This document shows positions 25,801-28,800 of a stretch of DNA of 64,000 nt, one piece after another. Each line of letters begins with the position of its first letter. Within the stretch, counting starts at the first letter, position 1. Position numbers: made by a program. The stretch is from Escherichia coli. GTDB taxonomy: Bacteria > Pseudomonadota > Gammaproteobacteria > Enterobacterales > Enterobacteriaceae. The stretch lies in NCBI RefSeq assembly GCF_024223415.1, contig NZ_CP100500.1; one strand, written 5' to 3'.

Positions 25801-28800
25801 CTACGACGGTGCCGACACCCGTTGGGGTGAGAAAACCACCAAGTCCAGCTCCACCACAGCGAATTTGCTCGATTAGCGTACCTTGCGGCACCAGAACGAC
25901 GTCCATCTCACCAGATATCATGCGCCGACCTGTTTCCGGGTTGGTGCCGATATGTGAAGCAATCACTTTGCGGACTCGACCATTGACGATGAGCGGACCG
26001 ATGCCGGTATCAACAAACGCGGTATCATTGGCTATCAATGTCAGGTCGCGAACACCAGATTCCAGTAATGCTTCAACCAGGCGGGATGGAGTGCCAATCC
26101 CCATAAATCCGCCCACCATGATGGTCATGCCGTCACGAAAGAAGCCGGTGGCGTCTTGTAATGTCATCAATTTTGTTTTCATTTTTTATCCCTCTTGCAT
26201 ACACCGTTGTGGGTACAGTCAGGGAATAGCAAGGGGAGTGCCAGAATGAGATTATTGGGTGTTTTTATTTAAATAATTGAATAGAAAAGGATAAATTAGA
26301 TGGGGATTCATAAGGAGAATAAGCGGCTATGCAGAAAATTGCGCACTGTGCAAATTTCTGCATAGCAAGTTTTGGCGTTATACATCCGCCGGATCGATAC
26401 CGTATTCCTGGAGTTTATACATCAATGCACGGCGACTGATGCCCAGCATTAAAGCAGTGCGGGTTCGGTTTCCTTCTTGTTGTTCCAGCACTTCCATAAT
26501 GATGCGTTTTTCGACGCGTTTAATTTCCTCTTTTAAATTACGCTCACCGACAGGGGCTGTTTTTGCCTCACCAGCATTACAGACTGGCTGACGAATCTGC
26601 GGCGGAAGATCCTCAGAAAAAATGATCGGGCCTGAATTCATCACGACGGCGCGTTCAATAACGTTGGAAAGCTCTCGAATATTTCCCGGCCATGACCAGG
26701 CGGTAAGCAGTGACATTGCCATCGGATCGATGTCGATAATATCGCGCTGATTCTCACTACTGAATTTTTGCAAAAAGTGATTAGCTAACAGGGAAATATC
26801 TTCCCGGCGATCGCGCAGAGGCGGCAGTATTAAATGAATAACGTTAAGGCGATAAAAGAGATCTTCACGGAAGGTGCCTTCTTTTACCATTGCCTGCAAG
26901 TCGCGGTTGGTGGCAGCAATGATGCGGATATCAACTTTTATGGTCTGATGGCCGCCAATCCGTTCAAATTCCCGTTCCTGCAGAATGCGTAGTAATTTGG
27001 CTTGCAGTACGAGCGGCATTTCGCCAATTTCGTCGAGGAGCAGAGTACCTTCGTTGGCACGTTCAAATAATCCCTGACGCAAGGTTTGTGCACCAGTAAA
27101 TGCACCTTTTTCATGACCAAACAGTTCACTTTCGAGCAACGATTCCGGCAGCGCCGCGCAGTTGACTTTAATGAACGGCCCCTTTGCCCGCCGCGAATTG
27201 TAGTGAATCGCTCTGGCAATCAACTCTTTCCCGGTGCCGCTTTCACCGCTAATCAAGACGCTGGCCTGAGAAAGGGCAATTTTGGCGGTGTCTTTGCAGA
27301 TATCCATCATCGCTGGGCTGTTGGTGAGAATGTGCCCCCATTGCCAGCTGGTGCTCAGTGCCTGGTGCAGATGACGGATCTCTTTTTTCATTGATTGGAG
27401 TTGTAAAGCGCGCTGAACGATTAAATTCAACTCATCGAGATCAAACGGTTTAATAACATAGTCGAAGGCCCCGCAGCGTAGCGCTTCGACGGCGGTTTCC
27501 ACTTCAGCATAGGCCGTCATCAGAATAACGGGTGTCCGGGTCTCATTACTGCGCATCTCCTTTAGTGCCTTGATGCCGTCCATCTCTGGCATGCGGATAT
27601 CCATCAACACTACGTCAGGGTGAATATCAGCAAACAGGTGTAATGCTGTGCGTCCGTTGTTCGCACAATGTGTTTCGAAACCTTGTAGTGCAAAAGCGGT
27701 GCTCAGCATACGGCGAACATTATCTTCATCATCCACAATAAGGATGCGATTAATAGCAGTCATACAGTCTGATTTCCCTGCGGGTTGATTGGTAAAATAA
27801 GCGTGAAGGTTGCGCCGTAGCCCGGCAAACTGGCGACGCGAATATCACCCTGATGGGCATTAATGATGCGTTGACTTAACGCCAGACCAAGCCCGGTTCC
27901 TGAGGCTTTGGTGGTGAAAAAGGGATCGAAGATCTTTTTTTGCAGCGAGAGATCAATGCCACAGCCGTTGTCCTCTATCGAAATGGCCTGTTGTGAGTCG
28001 CTGTATTGCCAGGTTTGAATGCGAATTTTCCCTCGTGCGCTGATAGCCTGGACGGCATTGATCAGGATATTCAGTAGTACCTGTTTGAGCAGTTCACGAT
28101 CGGCGTTAATCGGGTTTAATTCATTATCCAGTTCGCTTATGAAGTCGACCCGCGCTTGTACGCCGGCGGTTTGTACCAGTACCAGAGTTTCTTCAACCAA
28201 TGCATTGAGACTGACTTGTTGCCATTGACTGTGGCGTGGACGTGAAAATTCGAGCAATTGCTGAATAACTTTGTTAATTGAATCGATTTCTTTGAGTACT
28301 ACGGACAGATATTCCTGATGTATTAGGTCGCTGGTTTGTTGGCGCAAGATCTGTACATAACCACGAATAGCCGTTAGCGGATTACGTACTTCATGCGCGA
28401 CGCCAGCCATCAGCTCACCCAGTGTGGCGAGGCGTTCTGCTTGCGCCATGCGGCGCTGGGTTTCTTTGCGGACAGTTAAATCAGAGAAAATCACCAAAGC
28501 ACCTATCATTTCACCGTGCGTGTTATGAATACGACTGGTAGTGACACTGAGTTCAATGGTGCGGTCACGGCCTGGAAAACTGATCTCCAGCGCCACATGT
28601 TCGGTGCCATGTTCCAGTGTATCCAGTACTGGACTGTAGAACTGAGTATTGTCGAACAACATGGAATAAGGCTGCCCTACCAGTTCATGGCGTTGATAGC
28701 CAGTGATAACTTCTGCTGCCGGGTTCATGGTGGTTACATCACCCTGGCGGTCAATGGCAATGACGCCATCGGCAGCGTTTTCAATAATCAGATCGTTAAG

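Follow-up and report, generated by a model that had tools for sequence, protein, structure and literature searches.

The 195-bp region between atoC and atoD (positions 26183-26377, minus strand) in the window, a 64,000-nt stretch of the Escherichia coli chromosome (RefSeq assembly GCF_024223415.1, contig NZ_CP100500.1), is very probably the native control region of the atoDAEB operon: a classical enhancer-dependent sigma54 promoter that would work by the K-12 mechanism, as we infer from its sequence identity to K-12. The atoDAEB control region is already known, and the copy in the window is in essence the element characterised in K-12; the finding holds but is unremarkable, because the working parts are those of K-12 letter for letter. 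An earlier note on this DNA had proposed an AtoC-dependent architecture upstream of atoDAEB, and that proposal is supported by the gene context, by identity to K-12 and by a published AtoC half-site. Among the sequence features of the region there is nothing that would contradict the explanation as the native control region.

One genome whose intergenic region is identical is annotated with the order rcsC / atoS atoC / atoD atoA atoE atoB / yfaP, and K-12 has the same order. The atoS gene (27760-29586, minus strand) encodes a sensor histidine kinase of 608 amino acids, according to its annotation and its PAS, HisKA and HATPase_c Pfam domains, and it differs from K-12 AtoS at five residues, with no internal stops. 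The atoC gene (26378-27763, minus strand; stop codon TAA at 26380-26378) encodes a sigma54-dependent response regulator and enhancer-binding protein of 461 amino acids, with the Pfam domains Response_reg, Sigma54_activat, AAA_lid_14 and HTH_8; the GAFTGA motif at residue 220 and the context of D55 are intact, and the differences from K-12 AtoC are H73N and V400A. The regulated operon, atoDAEB, occupies 22336-26182 on the minus strand and consists of two CoA-transferase subunit genes, atoD (25520-26182, with its ATG at 26182) and atoA (24870-25520), both with a CoA_trans domain, the short-chain fatty-acid transporter gene atoE (23551-24873; SCFA_trans) and the thiolase gene atoB (22336-23520; Thiolase_N/Thiolase_C). 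All six ato ORFs have their K-12 length and no internal stops, and the DNA of atoD is 100% identical to that of K-12. The intergenic region also has the K-12 length of 195 bp, with 13 substitutions, none of which falls in the 56 bp that make up the palindrome and the promoter; 11 are in the 82-bp spacer, one is at 26376, just past the atoC stop codon, and one is at 26224, just downstream of the -12 element. Searches of the intergenic region for Rfam families and tRNAs found none.

The sigma54 promoter lies at 26243-26229 on the minus strand, where TGGCACTCCCCTTGC comprises a -24 element, TGGCAC (26243-26238), a five-nucleotide stretch, TCCCC, and a -12 element, TTGC (26232-26229). What had been described in the earlier note as a near-consensus TGGCAC-N5-TTGC element is an exact match, and the only one in the 64-kb window. 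Matches with one mismatch number five in the window, with seven expected; because these are at chance level, the sigma54 pattern alone is weak evidence, and it is the context that carries the argument. The -24/-12 element is 100% identical to that of K-12 MG1655, and genomic SELEX with the RpoN holoenzyme (RNAP-sigma54) has placed a binding peak in the K-12 atoC>atoD spacer; the rpoN gene itself is outside the window. The GG and GC dinucleotides are invariant in eight of eight orthologous sequences and in all sampled E. coli alleles with a full-length intergenic region. No sigma70-like promoter was found in 25900-26700, and no CRP-like site with two or fewer mismatches was found in the intergenic region.

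Upstream of the promoter, at 26366-26326 on the minus strand, is a 41-bp palindrome that we assign as the AtoC enhancer (UAS) from its inverted repeat, its identity to K-12 and the published half-site. Its left arm is GCTATGCAGAAATTTGCACA (26366-26347), its centre is a G at 26346, and its right arm is TGCGCAATTTTCTGCATAGC (26345-26326). The inverted repeat that the earlier note had placed here was recovered by a repeat finder as two 20-nt arms, 1 nt apart, with 18 of 20 positions (90%) complementary. The other geometric claims held closely: the span given, 26183-26377, coincides exactly with the intergenic region; the palindrome, said to follow the atoC stop directly, starts 11 nt past that codon; its distance to TGGCAC, given as about 85 bp, is 82 bp; and the distance from the promoter to atoD, given as about 45 bp, is 46 nt from TTGC to the ATG. 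At three or fewer mismatches, the 20-mer half-site occurs at only these two places in the 64-kb window, with 0.01 occurrences expected by chance. The palindrome is 100% identical to that of K-12 MG1655.

A later paper from the group that mapped the AtoC site (PMC3118216) describes a 40-bp palindrome ahead of atoDAEB, made up of two inverted sites of 20 bp each, which governs acetoacetate inducibility and AtoC binding and is bound in vivo by ChIP. The group gives a half-site at -184 to -165 and the motifs GCkATrCrrnnATTTrCwCA and GnGnAAnTTyCTGCAwAGCC. Counted from the atoD ATG, -184 to -165 corresponds to 26366-26347 in the window, and the two motifs fit the left and right arms exactly, such that the palindrome coincides with the published AtoC site in both position and motif, the comparison that the earlier note had called for. 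The same note had named mutations in the GG/GC dinucleotides, or a palindrome that failed to match mapped AtoC sites, as grounds for giving up its reading; there are no such mutations, and the palindrome does match the mapped site. Likewise, its description of the sequence as intact is borne out by the K-12 identity of the palindrome and the -24/-12 element and by the full length of the six ato ORFs.

The arrangement of these elements is conserved beyond E. coli. We scanned for AtoC in one genome per species; among the matches listed, six of 79 loci are true orthologs, and the rest are mostly NtrC-family paralogs. One of the orthologous loci belongs to a divergent lineage of Escherichia, whose AtoC is 90% identical, and the others to five species of Citrobacter, with 83-86% identity; all six share the order of elements. 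In the ortholog alignment the palindrome, an ATTCAA-N4-TTA core, TGGCA, TTGC and most of the leader are conserved, with the palindrome nearly invariant across Escherichia and Citrobacter; the remaining spacer is barely alignable. Across all orthologs the spacer measures 82-85 bp, and 104-107 bp, or about ten helical turns, separate the centre of the palindrome from the -24 GG. This conserved order and geometry is the signature that would be expected of an enhancer, a bend and a closed complex.

Within E. coli, the intergenic region is present in 3,923 of 5,426 complete genomes. The allele in the window is at least 99% identical to that of only 17 of the 3,923 ato-positive genomes, and less than 95% identical to that of 2,658; for stretches of atoD and atoC of the same length, identity reaches at least 99% in 3,369 and 2,909 genomes, respectively, and never falls below 95%. 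These equal-length flank searches, together with a comparison to K-12 that was chosen in advance, are our main evidence for divergence. In eight sampled E. coli alleles the functional elements, including the palindrome, are invariant and the spacer haplotypes form a mosaic, although this sample is biased and illustrative only, because the alleles were chosen by their divergence within the intergenic region. Strain CUVM53 carries a deletion that joins the promoter copy of TGGCACTCC (26243) to a second TGGCACTCC inside atoD (26096), removing the -12 element, the leader and the AtoD N-terminus; atoD is annotated as a pseudogene in that strain, which is thus a natural loss of function at the ato promoter. 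A lesion of this type is absent from the window.

The 82-bp looping spacer (26325-26244, minus strand; 72% A+T) is hypervariable in sequence and conserved in length. Relative to K-12 it has 11 differences in 82 positions (13%), compared with about 1% in the flanks. Third-codon positions of the six ato genes differ from K-12 at 65 of 2,345 sites (2.8%); the spacer is therefore about five times more divergent than the synonymous sites of the ato locus, an excess with p = 1.7e-5. When we slid an 82-nt frame along the 7.25-kb locus, positions outside the region never had more than five differences (mean 0.95), and the spacer was the only hot-spot. The three neighbouring intergenic regions differ from K-12 at 1/166, 0/30 and 0/73 positions. 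Since the spacer is 13% different from K-12 and the adjoining atoD is identical to it, either recombination or locally accelerated change must be involved. One could go further and suppose that the spacer, rather than being simply unconstrained, is under diversifying or balancing selection or undergoes repeated short-patch allele replacement, which would tune ato output among E. coli lineages. The spacer does adjoin a K-12-identical atoD, there are many recombinant haplotypes, and length, phasing and the IHF-like core are kept; we nonetheless regard this suggestion as speculative and rather improbable.

Within the spacer is a predicted IHF site, ATTCAATTATTTA (26282-26270, minus strand), which matches eight of the nine specified positions of WATCAANNNNTTR. 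The IHF consensus positions are conserved in the ortholog alignment, and the core in the window has one mismatch. In seven of the eight orthologous sequences, 70-71 bp separate the core from the centre of the palindrome and 33-35 bp separate it from the -24 GG. Across the window the IHF pattern is found 56 times, with 50 expected, and hence not above chance; our assignment of this core to IHF draws on the one-mismatch pattern together with the IHF dependence that has reportedly been observed for the K-12 promoter. The window also has a G>T change at 26273, specific to this sequence, that falls within the IHF-like core at an unspecified (N) position of the consensus. Our literature searches for AtoC with IHF, H73 or D55 returned nothing usable.

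Downstream of the promoter, the predicted transcription start is at 26220-26217 on the minus strand. It would be 26217 if the C of TTGC is at -12; the AtoC palindrome is said to lie at -146 to -107, which would presumably put the start at 26219/26220. The atoD 5' leader (26228-26183, minus strand), with a Shine-Dalgarno sequence GAGGG at 26194-26190, shows strong conservation from genus to genus, and every sequence has 47 nt between the -12 C and the ATG. An invariant block in the leader, CCCTGACTGTACCCACA (26224-26208), is complementary to nt 1-15 of Spot 42, a small RNA of catabolite repression. The predicted duplex of the leader with the 5' single-stranded region of Spot 42 (nt 1-20), to which we limited this analysis, has an energy of -17.7 kcal/mol, compared with -9.5 +/- 2.4 kcal/mol for shuffled leaders, of which 1 in 1,000 was as good. 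Folding full-length Spot 42 against the leader gave a score no better than shuffles; we kept only the analysis of nt 1-20 because full-length folding ignores intramolecular structure. In the literature, atoD is among the published targets of Spot 42 (Beisel et al., 2012, as cited in PMC7618054) and is listed under the Spot 42 target zone 'Spot42-A1' (PMC6127932), and Spot 42 has been held responsible for the known glucose repression of P_ato reporters. The leader probably also carries a Spot 42 pairing site that would lower atoD expression, although the mRNA may include no more than about 10 nt of the block (26218-26209), because the block partly precedes the predicted start.

We propose that the region operates as follows, by the mechanism that is established for K-12. 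In K-12, according to the literature, acetoacetate acts through AtoS to bring about phosphorylation of AtoC; in the window strain, likewise, acetoacetate would activate the kinase AtoS, which would phosphorylate AtoC. Phospho-AtoC would oligomerise on the 40-bp palindrome, 11 nt past its own stop codon, and RNAP-sigma54 would wait as a closed complex some 104 bp downstream, or roughly 10 helical turns, at TGGCAC-N5-TTGC. A bend induced by IHF within the AT-rich spacer, some 70 bp from the centre of the palindrome, would bring the AAA+ ring of AtoC to RNAP-sigma54, and the AAA+ domain, which carries the GAFTGA loop, would hydrolyse ATP to open the promoter, giving an atoDAEB transcript with a predicted leader of about 38 nt. 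The statement that the operon is functional and inducible in this strain is one that we infer from the same identity. Of the two growth tests put forward in the earlier note, acetoacetate is appropriate; butyrate is unsuitable, because AtoSC is not induced by butyrate and wild-type E. coli does not grow on butyrate unless atoC is constitutive.

An alternative is that the sequence is intact but that regulation has been altered or lost in the window strain, either through the His73Asn change in AtoC or through the rare, divergent spacer, which could affect IHF bending or loop geometry. AtoC H73N is indeed present, the intergenic allele is as rare as described above (at least 99% identical in only 17 of 3,923 ato-positive genomes), the window-specific change at 26273 is within the IHF-like core, and the promoter deletion in CUVM53 is a precedent for natural loss of function. 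His73, alongside Asp55, has reportedly been implicated in AtoC phosphorylation. Nonetheless, His73 is not conserved, since residue 73 is Q in five of five Citrobacter orthologs and R in the divergent Escherichia lineage, in all of which the D55 context is invariant, and these Q and R orthologs keep the whole control region. Moreover, the Asn73 haplotype is found in at least 242 complete genomes, compared with 2,895 that have the K-12 haplotype; H73N is a common natural variant and is therefore unlikely to disable AtoC. The change at 26273 affects only an unspecified position of the IHF consensus, the length (82 bp) and phasing of the spacer are unchanged, and the integrity of all six ato ORFs argues against decay after a loss of expression. 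We consequently consider altered regulation unlikely. The natural H/N/Q/R variation at AtoC residue 73 does bear on the reported second phosphorylation site.

A second alternative is that the palindrome works chiefly as RNA, forming a hairpin at the 3' end of atoSC that would serve as a terminator or would stabilise the mRNA; it might also combine this role with that of an enhancer. Folded as RNA, the 101-nt stretch around the palindrome has an energy of -31.3 kcal/mol (z = -4.0), none of the shuffled sequences folds equally well, and the hairpin begins 11 nt past the atoC stop codon, a position that on this view would reflect the RNA role instead of enhancer function. However, the hairpin has no U-tract and was not flagged by a terminator scan, and in Citrobacter the sequence past the palindrome is C-rich rather than T-rich; without a U-tract in either E. 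coli or Citrobacter, the palindrome is not a canonical terminator, although it may have a secondary part in stabilising the mRNA. The arms are also conserved in sequence, including an A/G asymmetry that would be a mismatch in RNA, such that protein recognition fits better than a stem, and the published footprint and ChIP assign the 40 bp of the palindrome to AtoC. A mainly RNA-level role is for these reasons quite improbable, and we favour the palindrome as the AtoC enhancer of the native sigma54 control region. Lastly, one could suppose that the sigma54-like motif and the palindrome both arose by chance and regulate nothing, citing the fact that one-mismatch TGGCAC-N5-TTGC matches are no commoner in the window than in shuffles. 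Uniqueness and conservation effectively refute this idea, since the exact promoter match is unique in the window, the chance expectation for the palindrome is 0.01, and both elements are identical to experimentally characterised K-12 elements, do not vary within E. coli and are conserved from genus to genus, with freely changing sequence between them.

By itself, the correct annotation of a textbook-type sigma54 control region adds little. If the native control region works as proposed, the window strain should manage the induction of acetoacetate and short-chain fatty-acid catabolism, and its P_ato elements should work like the published parts of acetoacetate biosensors. The region also provides an unusually clean natural phylogenetic footprint, in which the functional elements stay fixed and the looping spacer is free to change, and this footprint can be used to ask what an enhancer-promoter spacer needs besides length and bendability.

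The closest known system is P_ato of K-12 (Matta et al., 2007, J Bacteriol 189:6324, as described in PMC3118216). The window shares with it the locus, the 195-bp length of the intergenic region, the position and motif of the half-site and, at 100% identity, the palindrome, atoD, the -24/-12 element and most of the leader. The window differs from it by the 13 intergenic substitutions, by AtoC H73N and V400A, and by the five AtoS residues. Like other Spot 42 (spf) target sites, which are found in catabolite-repressed mRNAs, the atoD leader has a block that could pair with the single-stranded 5' region of Spot 42; it differs from them in that this block may extend upstream of the transcription start. 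The prpBCDE operon of Salmonella, controlled by PrpR, resembles ato: its dyad-symmetric activator site is upstream of a GG-N10-GC promoter at a distance of about 100 bp, and an AT-rich bend of the IHF type separates the two. Similarly, glnHp2, activated by NtrC, and nifH, activated by NifA, are IHF-assisted sigma54 promoters with NtrC-family activators and a layout like that of ato. In contrast to the prp, glnHp2 and nifH systems, the ato activator is a phosphorylation-controlled response regulator specific for acetoacetate, and the ato enhancer is a single 40-bp palindrome right after the stop codon of the activator gene, rather than a set of tandem sites at a divergent promoter.

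The control region between atoC and atoD (26183-26377, minus strand) varies very unevenly. Eleven of the 82 positions of the spacer between the AtoC enhancer palindrome and the sigma54 promoter (26244-26325) differ from K-12, a sharp divergence hot-spot. Divergence is about 1% in the genes on either side and 0-0.6% in nearby intergenic regions; unlike the spacer, the palindrome (26326-26366) and the -24/-12 element (26229-26243) that bound it show no variation. The allele in the window is rare, being found at 99% identity or more in just 17 of the 3923 complete E. coli genomes with this intergenic region. 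Recombination, selection or a mutational hot-spot may account for the divergence of the spacer.

The left and right arms of the palindrome mismatch at two positions, and one of these asymmetries (CACA on the left, CGCA on the right) is kept in all of the Escherichia and Citrobacter sequences compared (the orthologous loci L003-L008). The palindrome of the divergent Escherichia carries a symmetric arm change, with G>A on the left and C>T on the right. Downstream of the promoter, an invariant block of the atoD leader, CCCTGACTGTACCCACA (26208-26224, minus strand), shows complementarity to the 5' end of Spot 42, an sRNA; the duplex energy, -17.7 kcal/mol, was equalled by 1 of 1000 shuffles. Spot 42 target lists include atoD; part of the complementary block may lie upstream of the transcription start.

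The 9-mer TGGCACTCC occurs twice on the minus strand, once in the promoter -24 element (26243) and once inside atoD (26096). In E. coli CUVM53 (locus L083 2632) the stretch between these copies has been deleted, and with it the -12 element, the leader and the N-terminus of AtoD. On a larger scale, the ato locus (22336-29586) is missing as a unit in about 28% of complete E. coli genomes (about 1,500 of 5,426), and fragments of atoC and atoD are jointly present or jointly absent across these genomes. AtoC itself has Asn73 in the window (codon 73, 27545-27547, minus strand) rather than the His73 of K-12, a residue that is reported to be relevant to phosphorylation. Among complete E. coli genomes, 242 or more share the Asn73 haplotype, and AtoC orthologs have Q or R at this position.

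Elsewhere in the window, an insertion of ~1.45 kb (~44910-46360, plus strand), not found in the closest genome, CP021726, sits in a REP/naRNA4-rich spacer adjoining eco. It contains an ORF for the N-terminal, HTH part of a transposase (44970-45500, plus strand) and another for an rve integrase core (45605-46327, plus strand); this pair is typical of an IS3-family element. Rfam matches place naRNA4 (REP-element) RNAs at 2339-2409, 32602-32678 and 32716-32792 (plus strand) and at 44796-44879 (minus strand), and the MicF sRNA upstream of ompC at 36453-36546 (minus strand). At 63196-64000, where collinearity with CP021726 stops within the 3' end of its tRNA-Pro, the window may run into the border of a prophage or island inserted at tRNA-Pro. 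Only 9 genomes cover at least 80% of the final 800 bp, and in them it is annotated as a hypothetical protein; tRNA detection over the window found none.

GyrA (10209-12836, plus strand) carries S83L (codon 83, 10455-10457), the classic quinolone-resistance substitution, with D87 wild type. The gene for the alpha-2-macroglobulin family protein YfaS (yfaS, 15251-19829, plus strand) has an uninterrupted open frame of 1526 codons, whereas in CP021726 it is annotated as frameshifted.
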